A DNA stretch of 64,000 bases. Origin: a virus. Its lineage: Duplodnaviria; Heunggongvirae; Uroviricota; Caudoviricetes. Within the stretch, counting starts at the first letter, position 1. Every line of letters starts with the position of its first letter. The notes below the pieces were generated by a model. That model did not search any database. It was not told the origin of the DNA and worked only from the letters and a program-made list of their open reading frames with translations. Shown here in pieces: positions 44,178 to 61,830 of this stretch. Position numbers and translations under genes: made by a program. Where the stretch lies: IMG/VR virus record IMGVR_UViG_3300043105_000137; one strand, written 5' to 3'.

Positions 44178-44232
44178 AATTAGCTGTTTTTATTTGGAGA
44201 GGTCGAGAAAAACCTGTAACTTTGTAGTGTAA
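44178..44232 (+). promoter_or_regulatory. Class-1 promoter, TTAGCTGTTTTTATTTGGAG subtype
   Basis: The sequence is tatTTGGag...TAacTTTGtagtgtaa. Confidence 0.55.
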
Positions 44233-44765: not shown

Positions 44766-45283
44766 ATACTGTAAATAAAAAATTAATTGACTCTATCTTT
44801 GAGTTGGCTTCTAAAACTGACATGACATTCGCTACCTGTGTTAATAGTTGTTTATATGGTAGGAAACGTCAAGCTCAGGATGTGTCAATCATCAGTGGTG
44901 TGTTGTTGACATTTGAATGGGGTAATTTTGTCACCCGGTTCACACAGATTATCACCACCCTTATGAAAAGAAAAGCAGAGTTAGACACTACATATAAAAA
45001 TGTATATAAAGATGTGTTCGGTTCTGTTAAGGAAGGAATGTATCAAGACCTCAACCTCGAATGTGTTTGTGAGGTTCTTGATGAGTTTGAAGAAATTTAT
45101 CAGTCATTGGAAGTTCTACGTGTTCTTGGACTCCAGCATGATTTTGAAGGGATGAATGAAAACCTCGTGAGTGCTATTAAAAATTACACTTATTATCGTG
45201 ACTTAGCACATGCGAGAGTGATAGGATTTAATGTTGAATTTTATAACTTTCTGAAAAATGGAAATACAAGTAACCACGCCTGA
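44756..45283 (+). CDS. Hypothetical protein
   Basis: A 175-aa ORF. Confidence 0.45.
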   Translation: MDMNTVNKKLIDSIFELASKTDMTFATCVNSCLYGRKRQAQDVSIISGVLLTFEWGNFVTRFTQIITTLMKRKAELDTTYKNVYKDVFGSVKEGMYQDLNLECVCEVLDEFEEIYQSLEVLRVLGLQHDFEGMNENLVSAIKNYTYYRDLAHARVIGFNVEFYNFLKNGNTSNHA

Positions 45284-45665
45284 CCAATCTTCGATGTTGA
45301 TGGTCTTAGGTTTTGATCCCCGAACATCAGACTTCTACTATGATGGAAATGTATTAAACATCGGTAATATTTTCACAACAGATGAGGAAGGTTTGCCGAT
45401 TTATGATGAGTCGAAAGATGGAGATCAGCCTGCTTGGTCAGTTGGTGCCTTGATGAACCTCTACCCTAAAACAATCACTGACAAATATGATGAGGACAGT
45501 GCCGACATTTACATGAGTGTCGAGGTCGGAAAAGGAGTACCAGATGTCGTTATCTATTACCTAAACGGAAAAGAGTTCATCAGATTTCATTGCACAAAAG
45601 GTCTGGTAACTGGTTTGGTAGATTGTTTACATTACTTAGCTATTCATTATAATTTCGTACGATGA
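45258..45665 (+). CDS. Hypothetical protein
   Basis: A 135-aa ORF. Confidence 0.4.
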   Translation: MEIQVTTPDQSSMLMVLGFDPRTSDFYYDGNVLNIGNIFTTDEEGLPIYDESKDGDQPAWSVGALMNLYPKTITDKYDEDSADIYMSVEVGKGVPDVVIYYLNGKEFIRFHCTKGLVTGLVDCLHYLAIHYNFVR

Positions 45666-46174
45666 TGGAAAATGATTATCACTTTGGAGATAAATACGTG
45701 GTTGACTATCTTAATGAGTTCCCCGTTAGTGTTAGACATATGATACCTTTGTGGTGTGATGTGTATGGTGCCCTGAGATTTTATAGTATCGAATGTGAAG
45801 ATAGTCTCCGGACAACTGTTAAAATTATAAAATGTAAAACCGATGATGACAGAATCGTGAAGTTCAATTATCGAGGAATTGCCATGGTTGAGATAAGAGG
45901 CAAGAATTATGAACTGAGTGAAGATGTGTGTGGAGATGTGTCCCTCTATCCAAGTAAAGAGAAACTATCATGGTCGGAAGTATATAAACCACAAGACCGA
46001 GCTAAGAAAGGAAACAGGTATTTCTATATTAATGATTGTGGGTTAGTCCGTCAAGAAGAAGAACAACTCACCCCCACTGATTCCTGTCGTTGGCTTTTTG
46101 GAAATTACTTTATGACAGAAGGGGAAGCCGAGAAATCAAACATTTATTTTGCATACCATCCTAAACAAAAATAA
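45662..46174 (+). CDS. Paralog family B member (C-terminal module only)
   Basis: The C-terminus NRYFYINDCGLVRQ...GNYFMTEGEAEKSNIYFAY matches the family-B module. Confidence 0.45.
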   Translation: MMENDYHFGDKYVVDYLNEFPVSVRHMIPLWCDVYGALRFYSIECEDSLRTTVKIIKCKTDDDRIVKFNYRGIAMVEIRGKNYELSEDVCGDVSLYPSKEKLSWSEVYKPQDRAKKGNRYFYINDCGLVRQEEEQLTPTDSCRWLFGNYFMTEGEAEKSNIYFAYHPKQK

Positions 46175-46176
46175 AA

Positions 46177-48321
46177 ATGGCTGAGTATAAAGTAGGAGAT
46201 GTAGTAAGAATTAAGTCCAAGGAATGGTATGAACAACAAAAAGATAATAGTGGTGACATACCGTTTAAGTTTAATTCACAAAACAACAACCTTTATTTTC
46301 TTCGACCCATGAGTGAATATTGTGGGAAGAAAATGACAATCAGTGAAGTGCTAAATAATGGTCTATATCACTTAGCTGAGGATAATGGATATTTTTGTTG
46401 GATAGACCGATTTTTTGATGAATACGTAAAAGAGATGGAATATAAAAAAGGTCAAAAGGTGCGAATCAAATCTATTGAATGGTTCGCTAATCAACCCAAG
46501 GATATTGATGGGGATGTAGTAGCTTATGTTGGTGAAGAAGATGACCATGAGGTTTATTTCACCAAGAAGATGAGTGTGTATTGTGGACAAGTAATGACAA
46601 TTCAACAGGAAGCTGAAGATGGAGGTTATTATCTTAAGGAGGATATGTTGGATTTCATTTGGTCTCCCGCTTTCTTTGACTTAGCTGACGACACGAATTA
46701 CGAAAGATATAAAGTAGGAGATGTTGTCAAGGTAAAGTCCGAGGAATGGTTTGACTTGTTGCCCCACAATAATGAAGGTGATGTTGAGTTCGAGGATGAT
46801 GGAATTCAATATAAATTTCCGGAGAAGATGTATGATTACTGTGGACAAATAATGAAAATCAATGGAGTTAAGTCTGGTGTTTATACTCTTGATGGTGTTG
46901 ATGAGGATTACCTTTGGTCAGACAAGTTTTTTGATTCCGTTGGTGATAAGATTAAAGTGTGTGTAAAGGTAGCCAAGAAATACTCACCCGGTGATAAAGT
47001 AACTATTAAAGATTGGGATTGGTTTTCACGACAGACGAAAGATGAGTGTGGTGGATTTATCAAGGAACGAGGTGGACTAAAATTTTACTTCACCAAGGAC
47101 ATGGCTCAGTATTGTGGAAGGGAAATGACCATCCAAGAAGAAACATACTACACTGATGGAAACTACCGACTGAAGGAAGATGATCTTAATTATGACTGGG
47201 CACCTGATTTCTTTGAAGGGGGTGTTGAAGACATTATCGTTTACCCTCAGTTCAAAATCGGTGACAAGGTAAAGATACATGACAAGGAATGGTTCAATGA
47301 AATGTCCAAGGGAAAATTGTCAGGTTTAGGTGATGTTGTTGTTCCTACTAGAATTGGATATGCTTGTTTTACCCAAGAGATGAAGGAGTATTGTGACCAA
47401 GTAATGACCATCAAAGCAATCGACTGTAATGGTGATTATTTCATGGAGGAAGATAGTCAGTATTTCATTTGGTCTGATGAGTTCTTTGACTTAGTTGATG
47501 AGGATGAGGAAATATTTGATGATGTTGATGACATTGAAGTTGACTGTGATACTAACTCAGCCGTAGATAAACCGGAATTTGAGGTCAAGGAAGAAGTCAA
47601 ACCGAAACATAAAATTGGTGATGTTGTTCGAGTAAAATCCAAGGAATGGTATGATAAATCCGCTAAGACAGAAATAGGAGATATCGCCATCGATCAACCC
47701 TCCGGACATATTTGGTTCTGTAAAAAAATGACTCAGTATTGTGGACAAGAGTTAACAATTACGTCGGTCACAGAACAAGGTAATTATTTCACAAAGGAAG
47801 CCAATGATTATTTGTGGTGTGATGAGTTCTTTGAAGATGATGAAAATCCATTATTCTGGAAAACAACAGGCATCAACATTGCCAAGATATTGAATGGAAC
47901 ACCCAAGGGAACCAAGTTATATTCGCCCTGTTTTGGATATGTAAGATTTGGAAGTATCAGAAAAGTAACTAATGAAACAACCATATCAATCTTCACTAAT
48001 CCGAACATGGAACTGTCATCCAGATTGTTGTTAAATGAAGATGGTACACTCCAAGGATATGAAGATAATGAGTGTATCCTTTTCCCAAGTCACACAGAAC
48101 GAGATTGGTCTAAATATGTTTGTCCAAAGTGGCGAGCTTATGATGGAGAATTTTATTATGTAGATGCTGATGGAATAGTCAGAAGTGAACAAGACTATGG
48201 TGATGAGGAATATGATGTCAAACCAAGAGTAGAAAGACTATATAACTCTGGTAATTATTTCAAGACCGAAGAGGAAGCCAAGTCAAGTAAATTTTATAGA
48301 ATGTTTAACAACGAAAATTAA
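46177..48321 (+). CDS. Family B multi-repeat protein (714 aa)
   Basis: About seven tandem copies of a roughly 95-aa repeat (YKVGDVVRIKSKEWY...YCGxxMTI...G.Y.L.ED..W...FFD) are followed by the family-B C-terminal module (LYSPCFGYV...ECILFPS...DW...FYYVDADGIV...NYFKTEEEAKSSKFY). Confidence 0.55.
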   Translation: MAEYKVGDVVRIKSKEWYEQQKDNSGDIPFKFNSQNNNLYFLRPMSEYCGKKMTISEVLNNGLYHLAEDNGYFCWIDRFFDEYVKEMEYKKGQKVRIKSIEWFANQPKDIDGDVVAYVGEEDDHEVYFTKKMSVYCGQVMTIQQEAEDGGYYLKEDMLDFIWSPAFFDLADDTNYERYKVGDVVKVKSEEWFDLLPHNNEGDVEFEDDGIQYKFPEKMYDYCGQIMKINGVKSGVYTLDGVDEDYLWSDKFFDSVGDKIKVCVKVAKKYSPGDKVTIKDWDWFSRQTKDECGGFIKERGGLKFYFTKDMAQYCGREMTIQEETYYTDGNYRLKEDDLNYDWAPDFFEGGVEDIIVYPQFKIGDKVKIHDKEWFNEMSKGKLSGLGDVVVPTRIGYACFTQEMKEYCDQVMTIKAIDCNGDYFMEEDSQYFIWSDEFFDLVDEDEEIFDDVDDIEVDCDTNSAVDKPEFEVKEEVKPKHKIGDVVRVKSKEWYDKSAKTEIGDIAIDQPSGHIWFCKKMTQYCGQELTITSVTEQGNYFTKEANDYLWCDEFFEDDENPLFWKTTGINIAKILNGTPKGTKLYSPCFGYVRFGSIRKVTNETTISIFTNPNMELSSRLLLNEDGTLQGYEDNECILFPSHTERDWSKYVCPKWRAYDGEFYYVDADGIVRSEQDYGDEEYDVKPRVERLYNSGNYFKTEEEAKSSKFYRMFNNEN

Positions 48322-48328
48322 TCGTACG

Positions 48329-48820
48329 ATGAGTTTGAAATTACAAGTGAATAGTTTGGAAGCCCTCGAAAAGTTAATTGAAGGTGATGGGGAATTGGAA
48401 GTCCAGATAAAGGAAACAGTCCTCAACAAATTGGCGAACTCCTACATCAAGAAAATCGAAAATGAGGAAGTTGTCAATAAAGTGAAAGACATCATTGAAG
48501 GTTCTGTATATGATGAGAAACGATGGAATGGATATGTGAAAGACCATCTGGGAAAGGAAGTGGTCGAGAAGATTAGACAACAGACAAAAGATGAGGTTGA
48601 CCGTTTGATTGGGAATGAGATATATCAGATGCAAAACAATCTACTGTCTGTCATTAAGAAAGAATGTAAGAGATATGTTGACCAAATTTTCCCGATAGTG
48701 ATGGCTCAGGAATTTTCACGACAGGTTAGAAAGGCCGTAGATGGTGTTGTAAAGGAGGCCACTGAAAAAGCGAGGTCATCAGAAAACCCCAACGACAAAA
48801 ACATCCAGTTCTTTGAATGA
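48329..48820 (+). CDS. Hypothetical coiled-coil protein
   Basis: A 163-aa ORF. Confidence 0.45.
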   Translation: MSLKLQVNSLEALEKLIEGDGELEVQIKETVLNKLANSYIKKIENEEVVNKVKDIIEGSVYDEKRWNGYVKDHLGKEVVEKIRQQTKDEVDRLIGNEIYQMQNNLLSVIKKECKRYVDQIFPIVMAQEFSRQVRKAVDGVVKEATEKARSSENPNDKNIQFFE

Positions 48821-48835
48821 CGAAAATAAATCGTA

Positions 48836-48877
48836 GACTGTGCTAATGAAATTTTTAACATTTTTTTTAGCACAGTT
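48836..48877 (+). terminator. Perfect 10-bp hairpin overlapping the promoter -33 region
   Basis: The arms are actgtgctaa...ttagcacagt with a T-rich loop, followed by ttatttgg. Confidence 0.4.
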
Positions 48878-48920
48878 TATTTGGATATGTTGAAAAAAAC
48901 CAGTAACTTTGTAGTGTAAA
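48865..48920 (+). promoter_or_regulatory. Class-1 promoter
   Basis: The sequence is tatTTGGat...TAacTTTGtagtgtaa plus the leader AAAACAAAGTTAAACCCCAATAAAAC. Confidence 0.55.
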
Positions 48921-48960
48921 TAAAAAACAAAGTTAAACCCCAATAAAACAAAAAAAAATT

Positions 48961-49485
48961 ATGGTACTTTCACATTCTCAAATCGAAGGATTATTAAGTT
49001 GTATGATTGATGAAAAGGTCATATACCCCGGTGAATCATTCAAATCATTATCCAAAAAAAATGGTCGAAGTAATGCGGTCTTAAAACTATGTGAACTTCT
49101 GGACTATTTCTGGAGTGTTGATATGGATGAGGACAAAAGACTTACCGAAAATAATAAACACAAATGGATGGTTGAAAGGTTTCAGGCTGTGTCTGCTGAA
49201 TATGGAAATTTTATTAAGGCACATAAATGTTGGTGGCATGATAATTTTACATATACATACATAAATGACAACTTTTTTGTTCCATTTGACATATTCCCCT
49301 ACCAGACACGTTTAGATGATACGAAAAATATCGCTACATTGATTGATGTACTTTCCGAAGATCCTATTACCCAACCAATGTTTTGTGGTTCATCCAACAT
49401 TAAAAAATGGATGACTAACAAACTGGTTACTAATTTTAAAGAGAAGAAAAGATTTTGGGAAGTCGAAGGAGCTCGTGCAAACTAA
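48961..49485 (+). CDS. Hypothetical protein
   Basis: A 174-aa ORF. Confidence 0.45.
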   Translation: MVLSHSQIEGLLSCMIDEKVIYPGESFKSLSKKNGRSNAVLKLCELLDYFWSVDMDEDKRLTENNKHKWMVERFQAVSAEYGNFIKAHKCWWHDNFTYTYINDNFFVPFDIFPYQTRLDDTKNIATLIDVLSEDPITQPMFCGSSNIKKWMTNKLVTNFKEKKRFWEVEGARAN

Positions 49486-49503
49486 TTAAAGGTCAGTTCT
49501 GTT

Positions 49504-49716
49504 ATGAAAAATGATAAAACATTGTCTGGTGATGTGACAATGGACAGTATCAAAATTAAATTCCTGCAACTAAAAAACCCAAAATCCATTATTGACCGTC
49601 TGGGACATTATGACAAAGAGAAAAGTCACAGTAGGAATTGTCTCGATTTCCTTAATGAGATGGAGGACAACAATAGAATGGTTGAGTTGTTGGAAGAAAT
49701 AAAGAAAGCTGAGTGA
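49504..49716 (+). CDS. Hypothetical protein
   Basis: A 70-aa ORF. Confidence 0.35.
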   Translation: MKNDKTLSGDVTMDSIKIKFLQLKNPKSIIDRLGHYDKEKSHSRNCLDFLNEMEDNNRMVELLEEIKKAE

Positions 49717-49738
49717 CACAACTAAAATAAACAATCAA

Positions 49739-50389
49739 ATGAGCAATCAAGTAATGAAAAAGTTGGCCATAAGGATACTGAATAATTCTTTCTTTGGCAG
49801 TCAGGTTAATCTATATCGAGTAGACAAAGAGGGAATCGCTTGCTTTATCGCCAACACAATCAAACAAAAGGAATATGAAGAACAGACCATGACATTTGAA
49901 GAATATGGTCTGACATATGACTTCCGGAGACCGATACATGACTTAATGGTTGTGATTGATTTCATTGACAGTTTTGATGAGACATTGAGTATAGATGACA
50001 TTACCCACAAGAATGGTTTACCCAAGGCGGTGGAAGTATTTAGTTATCTTATGGAACTTCATTCTACTGAAAATGGTGTCCGAGGTGAAGTGAGCGAGAA
50101 TGATCCGTTGAGGTCGGAATGGCGAACTTTTGAAGATGAGTTACCTGAGTTGCTCGAGAAGCATCAAGGCAAGGAAACCGAATTAGTATCTGGTTGTTCA
50201 GTGATAAATTTCGCACGATTGATGGATTTATTGACAGAGGTTCAATTTGGTTTGACTAAGTTGAAATTCCATGATGAGGGTGTGAATGCTAAGATGAAAC
50301 ACTTGGCCAACAAATTCAACATCCTGAGAATAAAAACCGACAGGGACTATGCAACAATCCCACGTGAATTAATAGAAGGAACATTATAA
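49739..50389 (+). CDS. Hypothetical protein
   Basis: A 216-aa ORF. Confidence 0.45.
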   Translation: MSNQVMKKLAIRILNNSFFGSQVNLYRVDKEGIACFIANTIKQKEYEEQTMTFEEYGLTYDFRRPIHDLMVVIDFIDSFDETLSIDDITHKNGLPKAVEVFSYLMELHSTENGVRGEVSENDPLRSEWRTFEDELPELLEKHQGKETELVSGCSVINFARLMDLLTEVQFGLTKLKFHDEGVNAKMKHLANKFNILRIKTDRDYATIPRELIEGTL

Positions 50390-50401
50390 AAAATACAAGT
50401 T

Positions 50402-50860
50402 ATGAGAAATATACGTTTTCGTGGTAAGACAATGGACAAGCAGTGGGTTCATGGTTATCCCAGTAAAAATGTGTATCAAGACAAGACACAGATTATTGTA
50501 GGAAACCAGAATCACCTTGTTGATGAGAAAACAGTTGACCAATGGACTGGTTTGAATGACATCAATGGTGAGCCGATTTATGAGAATGACATCGTAGAGA
50601 GTATATTCAAATATGATGCTGTTTGTAATGGAGGTGTAATTCCAGATAATGATGCAACCGTCTGGGGTATTGTGAAATTTATAGATTTCAAGTTCGTTGT
50701 GATGATTATTAAGTCTGACAATCCTAAGTTGTTTGAAGATTTGGAATATTTGGACATAGTAGATTATGATGGGTGTTATGAGCCTGAGACATGGGAGGTA
50801 CTTGGAAACACGCATGATGACAATAAGATTTTAATTGAACTAAACGAAAATAAATCGTAA
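50402..50860 (+). CDS. YopX-family phage protein
   Basis: The segment RFRGK...QWTGLNDINGEPIYENDIV matches the YopX signature (FR.W......tGLkDknG.eIYEGDIv). Confidence 0.55.
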   Translation: MRNIRFRGKTMDKQWVHGYPSKNVYQDKTQIIVGNQNHLVDEKTVDQWTGLNDINGEPIYENDIVESIFKYDAVCNGGVIPDNDATVWGIVKFIDFKFVVMIIKSDNPKLFEDLEYLDIVDYDGCYEPETWEVLGNTHDDNKILIELNENKS

Positions 50861-50862
50861 TC

Positions 50863-50998
50863 ATGAAAAAAATCCGACTTGAAGATGCTCTGAAAGATGA
50901 GTATGGTGAAGATGACCTTTCAGATGTAATGGAAATCTTGAACCGTTTCGCTGATGATAAAATTGGCTCAGAAATCGACTTTGACTATGACCTTTAAC
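50863..50998 (+). CDS. Small acidic hypothetical protein (45 aa)
   Basis: The sequence begins MKKIRLEDALKDEYGEDDLSDVMEILNRFADDK... and falls below the track cutoff. Confidence 0.3.
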
Positions 50999-51008
50999 AA
51001 TTAGTGTC

Positions 51009-51725
51009 ATGAAATTTAACATTGGTGAGAAAGTTAGAGTAAAGTCCCACAAATGGTATGTTGAGATGTACCATAACAATATACTGAAATCGAAAGAGAA
51101 GTATATTGGTCAGGTTGTCACTATCGCACGAATTACCGACTGGGGTTATACTATTGTTGAAGATGAGGGTGTTAATGACTGGATGGAATGTGAGTTCGAC
51201 TTGTATGAGTTCGACCTGAGTGTTATCTTGGCTTATGCGAAAGGGACAATCTTGTGGTCTCCGGTCTTTGGGTATGTTGAACTCGTAGATGTACATAAGG
51301 ATACGATAGGTCTTCGTGTGGTGAATAAACAAACCATCATTGAAATTGACAAGTCTGGGCGGTGGCGAGATAACATACCCGGAGAGTGTATTCTGTGGCC
51401 AAGTGAAAAGTGCCGGGATTGGAGTGAGTTTGTGATTCCGAATAAACCTTGGAAAGCGAAGCGACATGACTTTTATTACTATGTGGATTCCGATGGTGAT
51501 ATTAAACATGACATTGAACAGGGAAAGAAATTGGAGTTCACACGTTGGAGGGTTCACAATTATTTTCCCACTATAGATGAAGCTCGGAAGTCAGACATTT
51601 ACAAGGGATTTCATGTCAATGCTCCCAATGATGAGGATTTGATTATAAAATACCAGACATCAATGGAATCACATCCGGGTTGTTTTGATGATTTGTTGTT
51701 TGGTTCTGACGATGACGAAAAATAA
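51009..51725 (+). CDS. Paralog family B member
   Basis: One N-terminal repeat (IGEKVRVKSHKWY...IGQVVTI) is followed by the C-terminal module (ILWSPVFGYVEL...GECILWPSEKCRDW...FYYYVDSDGDI...NYFPTIDEARKSDIY). Confidence 0.5.
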   Translation: MKFNIGEKVRVKSHKWYVEMYHNNILKSKEKYIGQVVTIARITDWGYTIVEDEGVNDWMECEFDLYEFDLSVILAYAKGTILWSPVFGYVELVDVHKDTIGLRVVNKQTIIEIDKSGRWRDNIPGECILWPSEKCRDWSEFVIPNKPWKAKRHDFYYYVDSDGDIKHDIEQGKKLEFTRWRVHNYFPTIDEARKSDIYKGFHVNAPNDEDLIIKYQTSMESHPGCFDDLLFGSDDDEK

Positions 51726-51759
51726 TCGTAAATCAGTAATCAGAAATTGTTAACATTAA

Positions 51760-51812
51760 TTAGCTGTTTTTATTTGGAGAAGTCAGAAAAAACCAGTAAC
51801 TTTGTAGTGTAA
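51760..51812 (+). promoter_or_regulatory. Class-1 promoter, TTAGCTGTTTTTATTTGGAG subtype
   Basis: The cassette is near-identical to 44178 and 58803 and carries the leader AAACAAAGTTAAACCCAATAAAAC. Confidence 0.55.
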
Positions 51813-51849
51813 ATAAAAAACAAAGTTAAACCCAATAAAACAAGAAACA

Positions 51850-52524
51850 ATGAAAAAAGTCAACAATCAATATAGAGTTAAATCCCTTCAGTGGTATGAC
51901 AGTCTCTACAATGGACAATTCAATGGACATATCTCTTTTGATGATGGTAATACGTTTTTCAGGGACATGCAACGGTACTGTGGTCAAATAGTCACTGTTC
52001 GAGAAACCTTTAAAGATGGCACATTTACAGTTGATGAGGATGGTGGATGTTATAGATGGACTGAGGAAATGATGGAAGATGAATTCCTCCCCGCTAACAT
52101 ATATGACATTCTAAAACATGCTAAGAAAGGTTATGTTCTCTATTGTCCTCTTTATGGTGGTAAGGTAAAACTGGAAAATGTGAATGAGGACAAAACCATC
52201 ACTGTTCTGACATCAGATGGAGAAGAAGCAACATTCAATGAGTATGGTCAAGTCACCTTCAATGGAAAAGTGATTGGAACTCAGCCTTGTTTATTCCCAG
52301 ACTCAAAAACAAACACTTGGGAGAATTTCCTTGGTTTCCACAGAAGTGAGCGATATGAAGAGGCAGAATATTACTTCATCGACCAGTACGGAACAATACA
52401 AGGAACAGTAGATAAAACAACAGAACGTGACATTCTCCGTTATGAGGCTTTCAATTATTTCTTCACGAGAGCTGAGGCCTTCCGTAGTGACATTTACCAA
52501 GCATACCATAAACTTCACTATTAA
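51850..52524 (+). CDS. Paralog family B member
   Basis: Carries the N-terminal repeat YRVKSLQWY...YCGQIVTV and the C-terminal module VLYCPLYGG...FYFIDQYGTI...NYFFTRAEAFRSDIY. Confidence 0.5.
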   Translation: MKKVNNQYRVKSLQWYDSLYNGQFNGHISFDDGNTFFRDMQRYCGQIVTVRETFKDGTFTVDEDGGCYRWTEEMMEDEFLPANIYDILKHAKKGYVLYCPLYGGKVKLENVNEDKTITVLTSDGEEATFNEYGQVTFNGKVIGTQPCLFPDSKTNTWENFLGFHRSERYEEAEYYFIDQYGTIQGTVDKTTERDILRYEAFNYFFTRAEAFRSDIYQAYHKLHY

Positions 52525-52564
52525 TTACGAAAACAAATCATCTAATCAGTAAAAAGAAAACGAT

Positions 52565-53242
52565 ATGAATTACAAAGTAGGTGATAGAGTAGTGGTCAAA
52601 TCAAAAAATTGGTATGACACTAAGAAATTCCTGAATGTAGGTGTCACTTGTGGTGCTTATATTTTCACTCCTGACATGGTTAAATTTTGTGACCAGACTG
52701 TAACTATCTCTGATGTGATTGATGACAGTTATTTGATTGATGAGGATGGGGGTGGAAATGTTTGGCGAGATGAGATGTTCGCTGGCTTTGAACCTGTTAA
52801 TATCTTCCAAACAATCTACCGAAACATCAAGGACTATGATTACTTGTGGTGTAATTTTCTTGGCACAGTTTACGTAGAAATGTTGAACCCGGATACTCAG
52901 ACCATACGAGTTCTCAAAAACATGCAGAGTTATGAGTTCAACAGATATGGACAGTTTAATTGTGAACCCAACCATGACAACACTCCACTTCATGTTCCCG
53001 TTTCACTTTTCCCTAATGAAGATGTGAAATCATGGAAAGAACTGGAAGTAGTTGATGAGTGGCCGAGAAAGGACTTTGGATTTTCATATTTCTTTGTTGA
53101 TGAGGTTGGACATATTCAAGTGACCAAGGATTTTCACACCGACGTAGATGACATGAGGTATAAAATCCACAACTATTTTATTAATGAACGAGATGCGAAA
53201 GGAAGTAAATTCTGGCGTATCTATCGAGAAAGGGAAAGTTAA
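52565..53242 (+). CDS. Paralog family B member
   Basis: Carries the N-terminal repeat YKVGDRVVVKSKNWY...FCDQTVTI and the C-terminal module ...FFVDEVGHI...NYFINERDAKGSKFW. Confidence 0.5.
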   Translation: MNYKVGDRVVVKSKNWYDTKKFLNVGVTCGAYIFTPDMVKFCDQTVTISDVIDDSYLIDEDGGGNVWRDEMFAGFEPVNIFQTIYRNIKDYDYLWCNFLGTVYVEMLNPDTQTIRVLKNMQSYEFNRYGQFNCEPNHDNTPLHVPVSLFPNEDVKSWKELEVVDEWPRKDFGFSYFFVDEVGHIQVTKDFHTDVDDMRYKIHNYFINERDAKGSKFWRIYRERES

Positions 53243-53244
53243 AG

Positions 53245-53877
53245 ATGGCTAAATATACGAAATACGATAAAGTTCGTGTGAGTCTCGGTCAGTTCAATTC
53301 ATCAGCTAAAATTATATCTGGAATGGAACAGTTCATAGATGAGGTCATGACTGTTTGTGATGTGAACCCAGATGGAAGTTACCAGATGTATGAAGATGAT
53401 GGAAGGTTCAAATGGTATGATGATTTCCTGATTGAAGAAAGCCGGGTGGACATAAACCACATCCTGAGATATTTCAAAGAAGGGACAATCTTGTATTCAC
53501 CAGCTTATGGATTTGTGGAACTAAAGAATGTAATGGACACTGGTGAGATTTTGGTTTGGGAGGTAGATTCCGAAATAGATATCCGAGCTCACATATTCGA
53601 CAGGTTTGGAAGACTCGACGGAAGTCCCGCTGGTGAATGTCTCCTGTTTCCAGATGCGTACCAGAGAGATTGGACAAAACTGAAAAACATCCCTACAGGT
53701 TGGCGTGCTGAGATAAATCAATCTTACTACTATGTGAATGATATTGGTGATATTGTTTATGTTCGAGATTGTGACAGTTACCAAGACCGACAGAGATATG
53801 TTATTCACAACTATTTTCGCACGAGAGAATTCGCAGAAGATAGTGAATTGTATAAACTATTAAATACGGAACAATGA
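53245..53877 (+). CDS. Paralog family B member
   Basis: Carries the C-terminal module ILYSPAYGFVEL...GECLLFPDAYQRDW...YYYVNDIGDI...NYFRTREFAEDSELY. Confidence 0.5.
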   Translation: MAKYTKYDKVRVSLGQFNSSAKIISGMEQFIDEVMTVCDVNPDGSYQMYEDDGRFKWYDDFLIEESRVDINHILRYFKEGTILYSPAYGFVELKNVMDTGEILVWEVDSEIDIRAHIFDRFGRLDGSPAGECLLFPDAYQRDWTKLKNIPTGWRAEINQSYYYVNDIGDIVYVRDCDSYQDRQRYVIHNYFRTREFAEDSELYKLLNTEQ

Positions 53878-54176
53878 GTATAGTGACCAATGTACCTCTT
53901 GGTGTCGGTCAAAGGCAGAATTACAACTATCAGATTTATGAGCTAATCAAATCCAACAGTGTGATTCAAAACCGAGCCGACGAAATCAAGACATTAATTG
54001 AAGAATACCCAAGTCAAAGGTTCGCTCAGTTAATCTGCAATTATATTTGTCCTGATTACCGTAGCCCTGAACCAAGTGTAGAAACCAAGTTAATCATGGA
54101 TGCTTTCTTTCCGGACTTCAGTGATCCGTTTTTTGAAGAAAGTTACCAGACCTATAATCGACTAAAACATGAGTAA
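53874..54176 (+). CDS. Hypothetical protein
   Basis: A 100-aa ORF. Confidence 0.4.
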   Translation: MSIVTNVPLGVGQRQNYNYQIYELIKSNSVIQNRADEIKTLIEEYPSQRFAQLICNYICPDYRSPEPSVETKLIMDAFFPDFSDPFFEESYQTYNRLKHE

Positions 54177-54645
54177 ATTCAATCTATTCGACACTTTACA
54201 TAGCCGAGATGAACTCCGGTGGTTTCCTACGTTGTTTTGGAGTCCTCTTTATGGTGATATGTACTTCCAGAGTTTTTTAGAGTACCGCCGGCTTCAGTTC
54301 AAGGTCTTAGATGGAGATGAGGTTGTCTTTGATGAATTTGGTCGACCTGTTGATTTTCCTAATAGTGAGCTGATGATATTTCCTAACAAGAGACAACAGG
54401 ATTGGTCAAAATGGTCAGACAAGATTCCTCTGAGGTGGCGAGGTGACGAAGGGGACACTTACTACTACATTGATGAGGTTGGAACGATTCGGGAGGACAC
54501 TGAGATGGACACTACTAAAGACCAAACTCGATGGATGATATGTAATTATTTCCAGACGAAAGAAATCGCACGGTCAACTCCACTATTCCAATCCTACCAA
54601 GTTTTATTATCTGCAATGGAACGACATCAAAAACCGGAAGAATGA
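54169..54645 (+). CDS. Paralog family B member (C-terminal module only)
   Basis: Carries ...MIFPNKRQQDW...TYYYIDEVGTI...NYFQTKEIARSTPLF. Confidence 0.45.
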   Translation: MSKFNLFDTLHSRDELRWFPTLFWSPLYGDMYFQSFLEYRRLQFKVLDGDEVVFDEFGRPVDFPNSELMIFPNKRQQDWSKWSDKIPLRWRGDEGDTYYYIDEVGTIREDTEMDTTKDQTRWMICNYFQTKEIARSTPLFQSYQVLLSAMERHQKPEE

Positions 54646-54875
54646 AATTTTATGTAGCTCGTGATGGAAATGATGTCCTTCACTTATTCAAATCAAAACC
54701 AGCTCGTCATAACCACTATAAAATCTGGTGTGGTCGAGGAGATGTGTTCCAAATTGACTCAGCACTTTGGCCAGATTTAAGATGGATAGATGAGGCACTA
54801 CCGATAGAGATAACTCAATTTCCTGATCCAACCAGAAAGGAATATCAAATTAAACCAAAATATGACATCGAATAA
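54642..54875 (+). CDS. Hypothetical protein
   Basis: A 77-aa ORF. Confidence 0.35.
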   Translation: MKFYVARDGNDVLHLFKSKPARHNHYKIWCGRGDVFQIDSALWPDLRWIDEALPIEITQFPDPTRKEYQIKPKYDIE

Positions 54876-55335
54876 AACAGTAACAACCATCAAACAGTCA
54901 TCAATTCTTCTCGACTGTGGAATTAATCCTGACTCAGCTGACCATCATTGGATATTCAAAGACATGGAGGGAAACTTCATTACGAAAAACGAATATGAAG
55001 AAAGATTTGAAAATAATGAGTATGGTCTACAACGTGAACTACTACCGAACTCAGACACGGATCCAGACATCATGTATCCTGCTTGGTCTCTCTGGTCACT
55101 GATAGATGCACTGAGAATCAACCCCAGTAAATATGAGTTGACCATAATCGTGTACCAAAATCATGAAGTTGACATTACTCTGACACTTAAAGAAACTCTG
55201 GAAGTCATTTTCCATAAATCTGGTGATCCTTTAGATGTTCTGGTTAAGTTAGTTGTCTTGGCCAAGTTTTCAACCTACTGTGAGGGACAACCCACTCTAC
55301 AGGAATTTGTTGATGGATGGGACTCAGCTCAGTAA
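54862..55335 (+). CDS. Hypothetical protein
   Basis: A 157-aa ORF. Confidence 0.45.
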   Translation: MTSNKTVTTIKQSSILLDCGINPDSADHHWIFKDMEGNFITKNEYEERFENNEYGLQRELLPNSDTDPDIMYPAWSLWSLIDALRINPSKYELTIIVYQNHEVDITLTLKETLEVIFHKSGDPLDVLVKLVVLAKFSTYCEGQPTLQEFVDGWDSAQ

Positions 55336-55372
55336 ACATAGATAGTTAAACAATATAAAAATTAGTTAAATT

Positions 55373-55627
55373 ATGATGCCTGATTTTATTACAATTTACC
55401 GTTACGACAAGAAAAAATACTACACCATCTCTATCTTCAAACATAAGGTAGGAGGTAAGTATTCATTCCTCAACATTACTAAGCAACATATCTGCCCTTG
55501 TGAGTTTGACACTTATGAGGATGCTATGAATGAGTTGAAAGAAAAGGAGCAGAAAGGTGAACTCAAAATCATGTCTACTTGGCAACCAGAAGTCCCAGTT
55601 GAAGATGGAATTGATAATGAATGGTAA
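55373..55627 (+). CDS. Hypothetical protein
   Basis: An 84-aa ORF. Confidence 0.4.
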   Translation: MMPDFITIYRYDKKKYYTISIFKHKVGGKYSFLNITKQHICPCEFDTYEDAMNELKEKEQKGELKIMSTWQPEVPVEDGIDNEW

Positions 55628-55880
55628 AACTCTACACCTTATCCTGAAATCCAAATGGTATGAGATGATTGAGTCAGGAGTGAAAAGGGAGGAATACCGA
55701 GATGTGAAACCCTATTGGACAAAACGGTTAGACGATACGAATTACGATACTGTTTGTTTCCATAAAGGTTACACATCAGAAACCTTGACTTTTCAGATCA
55801 CTGACATCTCCATCAGAACCGGAAATCCAGAATGGGGAGCTCAACCAGATGTCCAATATTATGTAATCAGTTTCCAATGA
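55617..55880 (+). CDS. ASCH/DUF3850-like small protein (tentative)
   Basis: The start is at the ATGA overlap. The segment HLILKSKWYEMIESGVKREEYRDVKPYW resembles the ASCH-like beta-barrel signature. Confidence 0.35.
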   Translation: MNGKTLHLILKSKWYEMIESGVKREEYRDVKPYWTKRLDDTNYDTVCFHKGYTSETLTFQITDISIRTGNPEWGAQPDVQYYVISFQ

Positions 55881-56380
55881 TTCCCAGTAAAGAAACCATC
55901 GACCGTCTGATAAATTCTGTCCCAGACTCAGCCATCGAAATATTTGGTGAACTTAATGACAACTATAATAAGATTTCCAGTTGTCGTTGTGCTGACTTCT
56001 TCCTTCGTGGATTTGAAGATGATGAGGTAGTAGATGCCAATGAATGGTTGGTCACTTGTGTGATTGACCGGATGATACTGAAATCTGATGAAGGGGTGGA
56101 ACGATGGATGGAACAGGTTATCAGGGAAAAACAGGACAAAGGTTATGGGGACTTCACATTCATCAGGAAACGCATGCGGAAATACATGGGGAATGAAAAG
56201 TTTTGGATTATTACTGTGATCCTGGACATTGTTTCTGAGATAACCGAACCACATGACTTCCCTAATGTATGCAGTTGGTTGTTATTCCTCAACTACTATA
56301 ATATCTTGGATAAAATTAACGACGAACGAAAGTACGAAAATGAAAACAACCATACTGAAACGACTGAGAAAGGAAGCTAA
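55832..56380 (+). CDS. Hypothetical protein
   Basis: A 182-aa ORF. Confidence 0.4.
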   Translation: MGSSTRCPILCNQFPMIPSKETIDRLINSVPDSAIEIFGELNDNYNKISSCRCADFFLRGFEDDEVVDANEWLVTCVIDRMILKSDEGVERWMEQVIREKQDKGYGDFTFIRKRMRKYMGNEKFWIITVILDIVSEITEPHDFPNVCSWLLFLNYYNILDKINDERKYENENNHTETTEKGS

Positions 56381-56669
56381 GAAAAATGTAAAGTTAGTTC
56401 CTATCTCCGGTAACATCTATGACCCTCAACCTCAGTTTTGTGTCCGGATAAGATATAAGAATAAGAAATATTACCTTTCCAAAGAAATGAAATGGACAAG
56501 GGACTGTTTCGACCGATTCGACTTCTTTGAAATAGGAGCGGCTGTATTTTTGAATGAAGGTCGGAGGTTATATATATTAGAGTATATTGAAGACCTACGT
56601 GACGAAAGACGAAATGAGGAAAACAAAAAAATAAGAAAAAATATTATCAAAAAGTTGACATCTCTCTAA
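56340..56669 (+). CDS. Hypothetical basic protein
   Basis: The start was moved to the internal ATG (MKTTILKRLRKEAKK) to reduce overlap. The track starts at 56253. Confidence 0.35.
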   Translation: MKTTILKRLRKEAKKNVKLVPISGNIYDPQPQFCVRIRYKNKKYYLSKEMKWTRDCFDRFDFFEIGAAVFLNEGRRLYILEYIEDLRDERRNEENKKIRKNIIKKLTSL

Positions 56670-56672
56670 TTT

Positions 56673-56693
56673 TTTGTTATTATTATAATGTAA
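56673..56693 (+). promoter_or_regulatory. Class-2 conserved motif
   Basis: The sequence is TTTGTTATTATTATAATGTAA. Confidence 0.4.
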
Positions 56694-56772
56694 GATAAAT
56701 TAAACGACATCTTACAAAATCAAATAATTTTTTAATTTTTAATTTTAATTTTTTTAAAAACGTTATAGTATT

Positions 56773-57885
56773 ATGACGAAAAATTTCATTGAATCTGCAC
56801 AAGCAGTACATGGTGACAAGTATGACTATTCTAAAGTCAATTTTGTAAACACTAAAACTAAAGTATGTATCATCTGCCCTGAACATGGTGAATTTTGGAT
56901 GACACCGCAGAACCACTTGGAAGGCCTTGGTTGTCCAGCATGTCGAGAAAATCAGATCAACCTCGACAACCAAAAGGAACACACTGAGTTTATTCGCAAG
57001 ACCGAGTTGGAAATGGACAAATCCCAACCTCGTTTCGCTGACAAGATGACAACAACTAAGTTCATTAACCAAGCTCGACAAGTACATGGTGACAAGTATG
57101 ACTATTCCTTGGTAGAGTATGTAAATTCAAAAACCAAGGTATGTATCATCTGCCCTGAACATGGTGAGTTCTGGATGAGCCCGATAAACCACTTGAAAGG
57201 ACTTGGTTGTCCGGACTGTTGGCATAATAAACACCAAATGACAACAGATGAGTTTATTGAAGAGGCACGACGACTGCATGGTAAAAAGTATGACTATTCT
57301 AAAACCAAGTACGTAAACGCAAGAACTAAGGTATGTATCATCTGTCCAAAACATGGTGAATTTTGGATGACACCTAAAGACCACCTCACTGGAAAAGGTT
57401 GTGCTGTATGTCGAAACGAGAAACACAAACTGACACAGGATGAGTTTATTCGCCGAGCCAAAGAAATTCATGGTGACAAATTCGACTACTCTAAGGTGAA
57501 ATATGTAAACTCAAACACCAAGGTATGTATCATCTGTCCAGAGAATGGTGCGTTCTGGTCAACCCCACGACACCACTTGAATGGTTACACTGGACAATCA
57601 GTATCAAACCGAGCAATCAAAAGGTTCATCAATAACGCTGAGAAAGACTTCGACGAGAAACAGTCAGATGAAAACCCCATCCAAGCTGAGCGAGATCGTA
57701 AAATAAGTCAAGAGTATTTCATCAACATGGCCAAAGAAATTCATGGTGACAAATATGACTACTCTAAGGTGAACTATGTAGACATGAAAACTGATGTATG
57801 TATTGTTGATGTCGAACATGGAGAATTTTATCAATCACCTAAAGACCACCTTATGGGGAAAACGATTTCATTCGCACGAAATTAA
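56773..57885 (+). CDS. Protein with six tandem zinc-ribbon (DUF4379-like) repeats
   Basis: The unit HGDKYDYSKV.YVN..TKVCIICPEHGEFW..P..HL.G.GCP.C recurs six times. Confidence 0.5.
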   Translation: MTKNFIESAQAVHGDKYDYSKVNFVNTKTKVCIICPEHGEFWMTPQNHLEGLGCPACRENQINLDNQKEHTEFIRKTELEMDKSQPRFADKMTTTKFINQARQVHGDKYDYSLVEYVNSKTKVCIICPEHGEFWMSPINHLKGLGCPDCWHNKHQMTTDEFIEEARRLHGKKYDYSKTKYVNARTKVCIICPKHGEFWMTPKDHLTGKGCAVCRNEKHKLTQDEFIRRAKEIHGDKFDYSKVKYVNSNTKVCIICPENGAFWSTPRHHLNGYTGQSVSNRAIKRFINNAEKDFDEKQSDENPIQAERDRKISQEYFINMAKEIHGDKYDYSKVNYVDMKTDVCIVDVEHGEFYQSPKDHLMGKTISFARN

Positions 57886-57930
57886 TAGAACTTACTGAAT
57901 GAATTTTTAATATATTTTGGCATGACTAAT

Positions 57931-57990
57931 TTGGAGAATTGAATTTTTTCTTGTACATTTGTAGAGTAAATAAAATTCAATTCTCCAAAT
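57931..57990 (+). promoter_or_regulatory. Class-1 promoter whose -7 element sits in the loop of a 17-bp perfect inverted repeat
   Basis: The arms ttggagaattgaatttt...aaaattcaattctccaa are perfect over 17 bp. The loop carries cttgtacaTTTGtagagtaa. Confidence 0.5.
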
Positions 57991-58011
57991 TTTTCACAAT
58001 CAAACAATCAT

Positions 58012-58761
58012 ATGAAATTAAATGTAGGTGATAAAGTAAGAGTCAAATCTCAACAGTGGTATTTAGAGAACAGAGATACAAACACCAAACAAATCTCGAT
58101 AGGTAAGATTGAACTCCCCTTCTATTTCAAAGAAGACATGAGTAATTTCTGTGACCAAATCGTGACCATTAAAGATAAAATAGACTCAACTTATTTTACC
58201 ATTGAGGAAGATAACAACGTCTGGACTTCCGGTTGTTTCTCAGCTCTCGTTAATTTAGATGGAACTGAAACCCCTATCCTCGACCTAATTCAAATCCTTG
58301 GTAAATGTGAAGAAAATCAAGTCTTCTACTGTCCGATGATTGGTGATGTAGTTGTGGATAGTATGTATGGTGATTGCATATTCCTGAGAAAACCAAAACT
58401 ACCCGGAGAAGAAACAATCCAGAAAAACAAATACTATATCAACAACGACCTGATACTTCATAAAGATGGCACGTTTGATGAGGATGGTGAAATCATGTTA
58501 TTCCCCTCTAAACATAAAAGAGATTGGAATGACTTTAATCCTATTCCTTGGAGGGCTCAACGTTATGGTGTTTATTTCTATGTAAATGAAATAGGCAATG
58601 TGGTCGCTAAGAATGACTATGGTGATGACTTTGATGAGAACCAGTATAAAATCGGTAACTATTTCAGAGTATATGAGTCGGCCTGTCAATCACTATTCTA
58701 CTTCATGAAACATCCAGAGATTGGTCATGAAGATACCACAGAACGACATTTGAAATATTGA
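58012..58761 (+). CDS. Paralog family B member
   Basis: Carries the N-terminal repeat LNVGDKVRVKSQQWY...FCDQIVTI and the C-terminal module ...IMLFPSKHKRDW...YFYVNEIGNV...NYFRVYESACQSLFY. Confidence 0.5.
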   Translation: MKLNVGDKVRVKSQQWYLENRDTNTKQISIGKIELPFYFKEDMSNFCDQIVTIKDKIDSTYFTIEEDNNVWTSGCFSALVNLDGTETPILDLIQILGKCEENQVFYCPMIGDVVVDSMYGDCIFLRKPKLPGEETIQKNKYYINNDLILHKDGTFDEDGEIMLFPSKHKRDWNDFNPIPWRAQRYGVYFYVNEIGNVVAKNDYGDDFDENQYKIGNYFRVYESACQSLFYFMKHPEIGHEDTTERHLKY

Positions 58762-58802
58762 CGAAAATAAATCGTAAATCAGTATTCAGATATTGTTAGC
58801 TT

Positions 58803-58858
58803 TATTTAGCGGTTTTTATTTGGAGATGTCGAGAAAAACTTGTATCTTTGTAATGTAA
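58803..58858 (+). promoter_or_regulatory. Class-1 promoter, TTAGCGGTTTTTATTTGGAG subtype
   Basis: The sequence is TTTGG...TAtcTTTGtaatgtaa. Confidence 0.55.
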
Positions 58859-58892
58859 AACAAAAGAACATTGAAAAGATGATTGATAAAAG

Positions 58893-58958
58893 ATTTAACA
58901 AATTTTTAGCACTTAAAATTTGGTCAAGTCAAAAAAATCAAGTATCTTTGTAATGTAA
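58893..58958 (+). promoter_or_regulatory. Class-1 promoter cassette with the conserved leader
   Basis: A full cassette identical in layout to 22976 and 23366. Confidence 0.6.
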
Positions 58959-58996
58959 AAAGAAAACAAGTTTAACTCTCTAAAAAACAAAAAACA

Positions 58997-59329
58997 ATGA
59001 AACGCATGTTCTTAGGTCTTTCAATGATGGCCGCTTATAATCAACATATCATCAACGGTAATCTTGGTATCGCAGTTCTCATCCTTGGTGGTTTCCTTTT
59101 CGTCATGGGTTTCAGAAAAGTCAGCGAAGCCTACCGTAAATTCAAAAGCAACAAAGACAACGTTGTTTATGAAAATGGTACTACTACCTACAACATCGGT
59201 CAAGACAACTACTACAATTTCATCGCTACTGGTAATGTCAAAATCAATGACAATGTATATACCGACTTTAATGTAGTTGAAACTCCCCTCGAAAACGGTA
59301 CAACCAAAGTGGAACTCTTCCGTAAATAA
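58997..59329 (+). CDS. Small membrane protein
   Basis: A hydrophobic N-terminal segment is present. The gene sits behind tandem promoters and the conserved leader. Confidence 0.5.
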   Translation: MKRMFLGLSMMAAYNQHIINGNLGIAVLILGGFLFVMGFRKVSEAYRKFKSNKDNVVYENGTTTYNIGQDNYYNFIATGNVKINDNVYTDFNVVETPLENGTTKVELFRK

Positions 59330-59360: not shown

Positions 59361-59705
59361 ATGGACAGAACTAATAACCACTTCAAGGTCGGAGACAAAG
59401 TAAAAGTCAAAGACCTATCATCTCTCTCTAAAGTTTGTCCCGGATATGATGAACCTCTGATTATCTGTGACCCTGATGAAGAAGATGAATTATGGTATCC
59501 TCCTTACTCCGACTTCGCTGGTAAAACAGTTGAAATAATTGAAGCTCGGTGGATCAGTGGCGAATCCAGAGACAACAAAGGTAATCCACTCGAAGAAGGT
59601 TACTGGGTTTATCTAATCAATGAAGATGACGGTATCCTTAACTGGTATGACCCCTATTTTGAACAAGAAGTCGTTACGAAAAATAATCGCTCAAAAAAGA
59701 AATAA
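59361..59705 (+). CDS. Hypothetical protein
   Basis: A 114-aa ORF. Confidence 0.45.
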   Translation: MDRTNNHFKVGDKVKVKDLSSLSKVCPGYDEPLIICDPDEEDELWYPPYSDFAGKTVEIIEARWISGESRDNKGNPLEEGYWVYLINEDDGILNWYDPYFEQEVVTKNNRSKKK

Positions 59706-60799: not shown

Positions 60800-61099
60800 T
60801 TTCCATCTGTGGTCTTTTCTTCGCACGACTTTTCGCCAAGTTTATGACCACCCTTATTTTGACCATCATTACATATGCTGACATAATCAGACCTTAAACT
60901 AATCATTACACAGTATGCTATTATTGTAAAATGTGCTAACCTAACTTTCTGAATATGTCACACAATCCCTTGGATTTCTTCTGAGGGATTGTTTTTTTGT
61001 ATTCTGACATTTTGTTACTATTTCCTGATTTTTACTTTCATTTTGACACCTCCTGAAGAAAAACTCAGGGGATTTTTTATAAGCATGTAAGTAAATCCC

Positions 61100-61830
61100 C
61101 TCTTTTACTTTCATTTTGTCATCTTAACCCAGTCCCCAGACTCAGCTGACCAGAACTCAACCCATATAACTGTCCATCCCCCTTCCTCAACTTAGCCCTC
61201 TTTACCATTCCTCTCCCTTTCCCTCACGATACGAATGACGAAACTACTACTCATCCACCCCCATATCTACCATACCGGATATATTAACCCCCAGATATAC
61301 ACCCCAGACTTCCAGATACCAGATTCCTCAACCCAGTAAATAACCCCCAGATACATATTAACCCTATTTCCTCTATTTTACCCTTTTTACTATACGAACG
61401 ATTTTACGATTTTTTCCATTTTTACCCCTTTTTTACTTAGCTAATTTTAAGACACATTTTTTCACTATTTTCCATGTTTTTCCCCTTTCTTACTTTTTAC
61501 CTCTTTTTACACTTTTTACCTCTTTTTTACTTAGCTTATTTTATTCCCCCTTTTTACCATATTTTACACTTTTTTGGAATTCTTGGAAATATGTGGAAAT
61601 CTGTGAAAACTACATTTCCGGCCTGTCCTGAGTTGGAGGGGTGGTTTTTCAAAGGAGTAAAATAAGCTAATTTCTGAGGGGGTAAAATAAGCTAATTTTG
61701 GGGTATTTTTAGGATATGTAAAAAAGACTAATTTTGGGGTATTTTTGGCCTATTTTGGGAGGGGGGTAAAATTAGCTAAAATTAGGGTTTTTTAGGGGGT
61801 ATTCAGAATCACTCAAAGAAGGCTAGAACT
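61100..61830. repeat. Repeat-rich, strand-skew-switching non-coding region: candidate replication origin or genome terminus
   Basis: The left part is C/T-rich with repeated AACCCCCAGATA(c/t)A units. At least 12 TTTTTAC(C) iterons follow. After about 61560 the + strand becomes G-rich, with repeated GTAAAATAAGCTAATTT and CTAATTTTGGGGTATTTTT units. Confidence 0.4.

Follow-up and report, generated by a model that had tools for sequence, protein, structure and literature searches.

Multi-copy families of small domains are common in large phages. In Bacillus phage G, about 35 zinc-ribbon copies represent a lineage-specific expansion of a small domain, for which a binding or regulatory role has been proposed (Iyer et al., 2021; PMC7824862). 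Here we describe a family in which a small, apparently non-enzymatic domain likewise occurs many times within the genome of a single large phage. It is encoded in a 64,000-nucleotide stretch of DNA (hereafter the window) from the IMG/VR record IMGVR_UViG_3300043105_000137, a virus of the class Caudoviricetes. Within a region of dense + strand open reading frames (ORFs) at 45662–58761, eight + strand ORFs, referred to by their first position (45662, 46177, 51009, 51850, 52565, 53245, 54169 and 58012), share a common C-terminal module of about 145 amino acids (aa), which in six of them follows one or more copies of an N-terminal repeat (N-repeat). The domain is a different one from that of phage G, and the window copies do not form a tight lineage-specific clade. 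The folds themselves are well known. New is the delimitation of two separate, very abundant domains, C1 and C2, which lie outside four profile libraries and are combined with an SH3 repeat resembling the REP domain of Mind bomb (MIB).

The best structural match of the N-repeat is this Mind bomb REP domain (SH3_15, PF18346; PDB 4xi6 and 4tse). The REP domain belongs to a eukaryotic E3 ligase, whereas the N-repeat is part of a phage protein; the two share 12% sequence identity, strands 1 and 2 of the phage repeat are separated by a long insertion, and a sequence-profile search of the PDB with the N-repeat gave no significant match. C1, predicted to be a small barrel of four to five strands, may share its fold class with Tudor-like domains found in UvrD/PcrA, CarD and Mfd. 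Its helical cap at the N-terminus and its conserved closing segment, (E)CxLFPS...DW, have not been described for those domains, and no match to the Tudor-like profiles of RNA polymerase-interacting proteins (CarD/TRCF RID, UvrD/PcrA) was found with Pfam in the window proteins or 150 homologues, nor by sequence in the PDB. The N-repeat already occurs in isolated phage genomes, as shown by matches of the 714-aa product of 46177 to PHROG 7488 (E = 7e-24) and PHROG 17705 (E = 7e-13); both families lack a function or fold annotation and do not cover C1–C2. True homologues of the C-terminal module were found by tblastn and Foldseek in crAss-like phages (DAC15_112/113, cr116_1, cr106_1, Kolpuevirus) and in Fusobacterium phage Fnu1. 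These genomes carry one to three copies each, compared with at least eight here, and all are annotated as 'hypothetical', so that they provide a distribution without a function.

The eight genes match one another at E-values of 1e-6 to 3e-26, with 25–33% identity over 80–250 aa, in an all-vs-all BLASTP comparison of the window + strand ORFs of at least 50 aa. A hidden Markov model (HMM) of the C-terminal module, for which these eight copies are the training set, recovers all of them at E-values of 1e-47 to 1e-54, and protein identity between copies of the module is 24–41%. Each of the eight carries the C1 signature, (NL.EILK..P.G)..LYSP.YG.V ... I.V ... F...G ... (E)C.LFPS...DW, followed by the C2 signature, WRA..G..YYY....G ... 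D ... (G)NYF.T.EEA. A preliminary description of this DNA had proposed at least eight genes with a common C-terminal domain, which would make up a modular family of paralogues that differ in how many N-terminal repeats they carry. BLASTP and the HMM bear out this domain and architecture, and the consensus given at the time (LYSP.YG.V ... GEC.LFP ... DW ... YYYV ... G.I ... NYF.T.EEA..S..Y) is seen in our alignment A1. The possibility raised there, that the similarity might be driven by low complexity, does not hold, because the sequences are aromatic-rich and globular and two of the proteins yielded AlphaFold2 models of high confidence, with predicted local distance difference test (pLDDT) values of 89–92.

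All family members described below are encoded on the + strand. Two of the eight have no N-repeat: 45662–46174 (170 aa) consists of C1–C2 with a divergent C1 (C-module HMM E = 9e-48, aa 8–169) and matches its paralogues by BLASTP at E-values of 1e-6 to 6e-12, while 54169–54645 (158 aa) encodes C1–C2 alone. Exactly one N-repeat is found in each of five products. HMMs and BLASTP place it at aa 1–67 of the 238-aa product of 51009–51725, with C1–C2 at aa 71–204 and an acidic tail; by HMM, it spans aa 2–78 of the 224-aa product of 51850–52524 (C1–C2 at aa 79–223) and aa 1–75 of the 225-aa product of 52565–53242 (C1–C2 at aa 75–224). In the 210-aa product of 53245–53877 the repeat is shortened (aa 2–66, lacking the KS..WY loop; C1–C2 at aa 65–209). 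The 249-aa product of 58012–58761 carries it at aa 1–80, before a C1–C2 module (aa 87–236) in which HMMs and the alignment reveal a long loop insertion in C1.

The remaining gene, 46177–48321, encodes a 714-aa protein, in which HMM domains delimit a tandem array of six N-repeats, an acidic linker of 34 aa and C1–C2. Repeats 1–5 span 46183–47502 (aa 3–85, 87–172, 177–256, 267–351 and 358–442; hmmsearch domains and DNA direct repeats). The linker at 47503–47604 (aa 443–476, DEDEEIFDDVDDIEVD...), read from the translation and located in a gap between HMM domains, separates repeats 5 and 6, of which the latter lies at 47605–47847 (aa 477–557, domain E = 1.4e-34). C1–C2 follows at 47863–48315 (aa 563–713, domain E = 2.9e-47). 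The preliminary description had counted about seven copies in this protein and given the repeat a length of about 95 aa; the HMM domains number six, and the measured unit is about 85–90 aa. Six of the eight genes begin with the repeat, five of them with a single copy and one with the sixfold array.

Two partial copies of the C-terminal module lie outside the HMM training set. The first half is represented by an 87-aa solo C1 at 17022–17285 (E = 3e-14 with a window-only profile, profile positions 5–83); that 17022/17279 is a split gene providing the missing C2 was ruled out, as the downstream ORF has no C2. The second half is found in the 174-aa product of 23853–24377, where C2 occupies 24183–24332 (aa 111–160; E = 5e-7, or 3e-9 with a broader profile) and reads YKYWYISSTGQIRS...CGNYFDTKSEAEYY. 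The N-terminal part of this protein is unrelated to the family; the distant copy noted there earlier exists, for C2 only. In addition, a 114-aa solo N-repeat with a distal-loop insertion is encoded at 59361–59705 (E = 1.1e-6 with a profile built without this copy; aligned in A5).

The division of the C-terminal module into C1 and C2 emerges from its homologues. The 153 best include 80 with C1–C2, 45 with C1 alone (the first ~83 positions) and 5 with C2 alone (the last ~60 positions), and several carry tandem C1 or tandem C2. Because C1-only, C2-only and tandem-half homologues exist, their sequences indicate that what had looked like one domain comprises two independent modules, C1 of about 80 aa and C2 of about 60 aa. 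AlphaFold2 models were built from family alignments for two proteins, the 53245 product (N-repeat, C1 and C2; pLDDT 89.1, predicted template modelling score (pTM) 0.56) and the 54169 product (C1 and C2; pLDDT 91.8, pTM 0.65). The model of the C-terminal module has a short helical cap, a barrel of four to five strands (aa 22–71), a β-hairpin (aa 97–111) and three helices (aa 116–154). C1 is thus modelled as a helix-capped Tudor/SH3-like barrel and C2 as a β-hairpin with helices. The top-ranked PDB neighbours of this model are the Tudor-like domains of UvrD/PcrA, CarD and Mfd, to which the resemblance is weak. Insertions and deletions in C1 fall between the predicted strands, for example a 14-residue insertion in 58012. 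The idea that C1 might be a diverged N-repeat was rejected (hhalign probability 0.9%).

The N-repeat is a five-strand SH3-type barrel in its model, and it can be superposed on the solved REP domain. The Pfam family SH3_15 matches the 714-aa protein with 29.7 bits (E = 8e-7), above the gathering score of 24, with the best stretch at aa 359–420 (profile positions 1–48 of 67). Taken singly, three of 12 N-repeats match SH3_15 at E ≤ 1 (best 0.0023), and none of the single-repeat family proteins matches it in Pfam. The structural match and the SH3_15 hit above threshold together support the prediction that the N-repeat is a MIB-REP-type SH3 barrel whose membership of SH3_15 is borderline. The earlier statement that no known Pfam family could be recognised by eye therefore stands for C1–C2, in the window proteins and 150 homologues, and does not fully hold for the N-repeat.

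Within the 714-aa protein, each of the six N-repeats is recognised at a domain E-value of 1e-31 to 1e-34, and the repeat period in the gene is 255–279 nucleotides. At the DNA level, the repeat is visible as a 47-nucleotide block encoding KVGDxVRVKSxxWY (seven occurrences) and a 59-nucleotide block encoding YCGQxMTI (six occurrences; repeat families D2 and D3). Protein identity between N-repeats is 21–47% overall, and 33–47% for those of the 714-aa protein. Tandem Repeats Finder detected no DNA-level tandem array in this gene, as the repeats are too diverged; given this result and the low protein identity, a recent tandem burst was rejected. The N-repeat is also mobile, since profile searches detect it as the N-terminal part of proteins that differ widely in their C-termini.

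The residues that are invariant among the eight copies (G, G, P, W, G, N-Y-F and A) are of structural types. A catalytic role of the cysteine in GEC.LFP was rejected, as half of the window copies have V, P, L or I instead. The ECxLFPSKDxRDW block (K-D-x-R-D) is conserved in many outside homologues and degenerate in the window copies. Library searches found no catalytic domain in any family member. With no candidate catalytic residue conserved across the copies, the family is apparently non-enzymatic. The isoelectric point (pI) is 4.4–5.5 in nine of 11 members and 6.43 in the divergent 23853 copy, and the net charge ranges from −4 to −58, the latter figure being approximately that of the 714-aa protein (pI 4.52). 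The members are hydrophilic, with 12–17% aromatic residues, and none has a hydrophobic segment suitable as a signal peptide or membrane helix (maximum 19-residue hydropathy ≤ 1.28).

The abundance of the family, whose main carriers are gut phages, became apparent when 1.84 billion cluster representatives were searched exhaustively by HMMER with the eight C-terminal modules: 4,015 proteins matched at E ≤ 1e-3, and 603 of these at E ≤ 1e-10. No match to C1–C2 was found in Pfam, PHROGs, NCBIfam or PADLOC for the window proteins, or in Pfam or PHROGs across 150 homologues. PDB sequence-profile searches (A3, A5, A6) gave no credible match, and literature searches did not find a description of the family. 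NHL-repeat (Brat) hits to C1 with a whole-sequence E-value of about 9e-5 were set aside, as single stretches were insignificant (best E = 1.5), and are treated as a shared β-hairpin motif, not as homology.

In BFVD, a database of predicted viral structures, Foldseek matched only entries named 'uncharacterized protein' (E down to 1.6e-6), from crAss-like phages (cr116_1, cr106_1, ctcc615), three proteins of Fusobacterium phage Fnu1 and many gut contigs labelled 'Siphoviridae/Myoviridae sp.'. A tblastn search of 50,697 phage genomes returned 12 records (E down to 5e-10), in which all annotated matches are 'hypothetical'; the identifiable records are crAss-like or Bacteroides phages, and the remainder are unclassified gut-phage records. 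Phage DAC15 has two neighbouring C1 genes, which belong to a cluster of small genes beside the terminal repeat. Among GTDB species genomes, copies occur in gut metagenome-assembled genomes of Bacilli/Coprovivens, 'Tenericutes', Prevotellaceae, Phocaeicola and Clostridium. On metagenome contigs, homologues adjoin genes for ERF recombinase, DNA methylases, pRha and helix-turn-helix proteins. Six homologues (P0133, P0142, P0158, P0163, P0166 and P0172) join C1 or C2 to further recurring small modules without a Pfam match, and examples of such extra modules in metagenome homologues are ...KPFDKVLVRD...W...FSHYD...C.PY... and ...FEPKDGDIV.... This suggests that gut-phage proteins draw on a larger set of shuffled small modules, several of which resemble barrels, judging by sequence alone.

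When homologues of the individual C-terminal modules were ranked, sequences from outside the window were as close as, or closer than, the in-genome copies. The best in-genome copy ranks sixth for 46177 and seventh for 58012, and the only local sub-cluster comprises 51009, 53245 and 54169. A lineage-specific clade was rejected, as outside homologues outrank most other in-genome copies. Because outside homologues are as close as the in-genome ones, the copies are old lineages, accumulated or retained by the phage from a big family, and not the product of a recent burst.

A close relative (L001, 97–99% identical) carries the same eight genes and the solo repeat, all intact. Between the two, the proportions of synonymous and non-synonymous differences (pS and pN; Nei–Gojobori) are 0.030 and 0.0054 for the family and 0.053 and 0.0097 for 19 neighbouring genes, and the pN/pS ratio is 0.18 in both cases. 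The family is under ordinary purifying selection between strains. An active arms race, as one reading of the 'strong diversification' mentioned in the preliminary description, agrees neither with a ratio equal to that of the neighbours nor with the age of the copies. In L006, a more distant relative, the orthologue of 45662 is the only one present within 20 kb.

The window has a G+C content of about 35%, and nearly all of its genes lie on one strand. The phage genome to which it belongs probably measures about 350 kb, because near-identical proteins sit on metagenome contigs from the Joint Genome Institute (JGI) that reach 351,880 bp. A megablast search with positions 45000–59000 against 50,697 phage records (INPHARED) gave no match, and a scan of IMG/VR for close relatives with the 53245 protein found none. 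A strongly conserved intergenic element, TTTGG-N17-GTA(A/T)CTTTGTAGTGTAA, recurs in the window. The pattern TTTG-N19-21-TAnnTTTG has 16 matches (15 on the + strand, all intergenic) where 1.8 are expected, and the extended −7 box has 15 where 0.43 are expected. The + strand sites are at 10072, 15662, 22900, 23002, 23393, 27034, 36252, 36353, 36454, 44193, 48880, 51773, 57930, 58819 and 58919, among them tandem sets spaced about 100 bp apart (22900/23002/23393, 36252/36353/36454 and 58819/58919). The same pattern is the consensus of the Bacteroides primary sigma factor (PMC7366714). Because the promoters match this consensus, the host is probably a Gram-negative member of the Bacteroidota, and the family genes would be transcribed by the host RNA polymerase.

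Four of these promoters, all on the + strand and located by pattern search, head units that contain family genes. The promoter at 44193–44224 (TTTG, a 20-nucleotide spacer and TAACTTTG) heads the unit with 45662 and 46177. The Bacteroidota-type promoter at 48880–48911, also seen as repeat family D5, heads the unit with 51009, and that at 51773–51804, likewise part of a DNA repeat, heads the run 51850–52565–53245–53874–54169, of which 51850 is the first gene. The fourth, at 57930–57961, has a more divergent −7 box and serves 58012 on its own. An intergenic cassette consisting of a gene end, an inverted repeat and a promoter is repeated at 48818–48957, 51713–51850 and 58759–58850 (D5, D6, D8). 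Its copies are 65–90% identical, with an inverted repeat exemplified by ACTGTGCTAA...TTAGCACAGT at 48826–48876, and it may be a terminator–promoter unit copied along with gene blocks.

The large ORFs of the window encode, according to Pfam, an IMPDH/GMP-reductase-like protein (3082–4224), an RlaP nucleotidyltransferase (11219–12493), an OmpA-domain protein (25556–26674), a SIR2-domain protein (33521–35431), a Dam methylase, a superfamily 1 (SF1) helicase and an Acb3-like inhibitor of the cyclic-oligonucleotide-based anti-phage signalling system (CBASS; 39400–40311, 30.7 bits against a gathering score of 27). No structural, tail-fibre or lysis gene was recognisable among the ten large window ORFs scanned with Pfam. 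By its gene content, the arm that holds the family is a non-structural, accessory one.

We read the family, with about even confidence, as soluble, acidic, apparently non-enzymatic 'beads-on-a-string' proteins that serve as intracellular binding or adaptor modules. The genes would probably be transcribed early or in the middle of infection, and their products would act inside the infected cell. The indel-rich barrel loops could direct each copy to a distinct host or phage partner, and the six-repeat protein could be a multivalent scaffold. Their purpose would most likely be host takeover or counter-defence rather than adsorption. Several points weigh against this reading. All named homologues are 'hypothetical' or 'uncharacterized'. 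The promoter type indicates dependence on the host polymerase, not timing. SH3, Tudor and KOW barrels elsewhere bind nucleic acids or peptidoglycan. The selection test comprises 71 substitutions between two close strains and is blind to older episodic positive selection.

A bolder version of the binding-protein reading, which we put forward tentatively and consider rather unlikely, is that C1–C2 and the N-repeat make up a toolkit whose combinations yield target-specific binders, employed by gut phages against host proteins. Each copy would have a Bacteroidota factor of its own to neutralise or redirect, such as a defence protein or, via the Tudor-like C1, RNA polymerase, and the sixfold SH3 array would provide a scaffold. 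If this were true, the family would represent a new class of effectors by which phages take over the host or counter its defences, and a very large one, with more than 4,000 sequence clusters. Should the copies be target-specific inhibitors, a single phage would offer eight natural variants for specificity mapping.

A specific sub-case of the binding-protein reading is an anti-defence battery, in which each copy would be an inhibitor or decoy of a different host immune protein and copy number would mirror the diversity of Bacteroidota defences. Many known anti-defence proteins are small and acidic, as are those of this family. The copies are many and divergent, the arm also carries the Acb3-like CBASS inhibitor, the SIR2 protein and the Dam methylase, and homologues elsewhere adjoin DNA methylases. 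However, such a neighbourhood is weak evidence where most genes are of unknown function, pN/pS between strains is not raised, and the family shows no similarity to known anti-defence proteins in Pfam, the only one of the libraries searched that holds some of them (e.g. Acb3). PADLOC gave no match either, though its models are of defence and not of anti-defence systems. We regard a dedicated anti-defence battery as unlikely.

The modelled Tudor-like fold of C1 also raises the question of whether the proteins modulate transcription or translation, with C1 docking on the β lobe of the host RNA polymerase, in the manner of the Tudor-like domains in UvrD/PcrA, CarD and Mfd, or the barrels binding RNA or DNA. 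This is doubtful, since the resemblance to Tudor domains is weak and there is no sequence match to the CarD/TRCF or KOW families. The net charge of −4 to −58 further disfavours direct binding of nucleic acids, but not of RNA polymerase.

Phage receptor-binding and decoration proteins include multi-copy divergent families with repeated small β domains, and the SH3b domains of endolysins bind peptidoglycan. These general parallels are all that favours a virion, receptor-binding, adsorption or SH3b-type cell-wall-binding role, of which the preliminary description had suggested receptor binding and adsorption, and no finding here supports it. We consider such a role very improbable for small, acidic, soluble proteins that have no signal peptide or membrane segment, no match to SH3_3/SH3_5, a tail-fibre family or the tail category of PHROGs, host-type promoters and a conservative evolution between strains (pN/pS 0.18), that lie in an arm whose ten large ORFs include no recognisable structural, tail-fibre or lysis gene, whose homologues elsewhere sit in early or replication regions, and whose probable host is Gram-negative. 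Even if the family turned out to consist of ordinary accessory proteins, a tempting and unsupported 'receptor-binding' annotation would have been removed.

Most genes of gut phages, above all of the crAss-like and jumbo phages of Bacteroidota, are without an assigned function. The putative intracellular binders described here suit new domain definitions and targeted interaction screens, for which they are good candidates because three domains have been delimited, their folds are predicted with confidence and their genomic setting is consistent.

Other features of the window were noted in passing. Between the family genes 54169 and 58012, the gene at 56773–57885 encodes a 370-aa protein with five DUF723-type repeats (HGDKYDYSKV.YVN.KTKV.IICPEHGEFW..P..HL.G.GCP.C), which are visible as DNA repeats of 171–192 nucleotides with 60–77% identity; it is the most diverged gene in comparison with the close relative (95.4% nucleotide identity). 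The all-vs-all BLASTP comparison revealed further sets of paralogues, namely the adjacent genes 19932, 20811, 21284 and 22368 (19932–22871) and the pairs 27055/31971, 36531/37892 (52% identity), 45258/54862, 42254/55832 and 10131/19314. ARAGORN identified six tRNAs in the window, and Rfam a seventh at 37777–37851. The tRNA-Phe at 37380–37453 has the anticodon AAA according to ARAGORN, which is unusual, GAA being the normal anticodon of tRNA-Phe. Finally, a region of about 1.2 kb at 60800–62027 contains only very short ORFs and C-rich repetitive sequence (CCCCCAGATACATATTAACCC...). The G+C skew flips sharply around it, from −0.22 to +0.59, and the genes past this region point on the opposite strand in the close relative L001. 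The region may be an arm boundary or origin-like.

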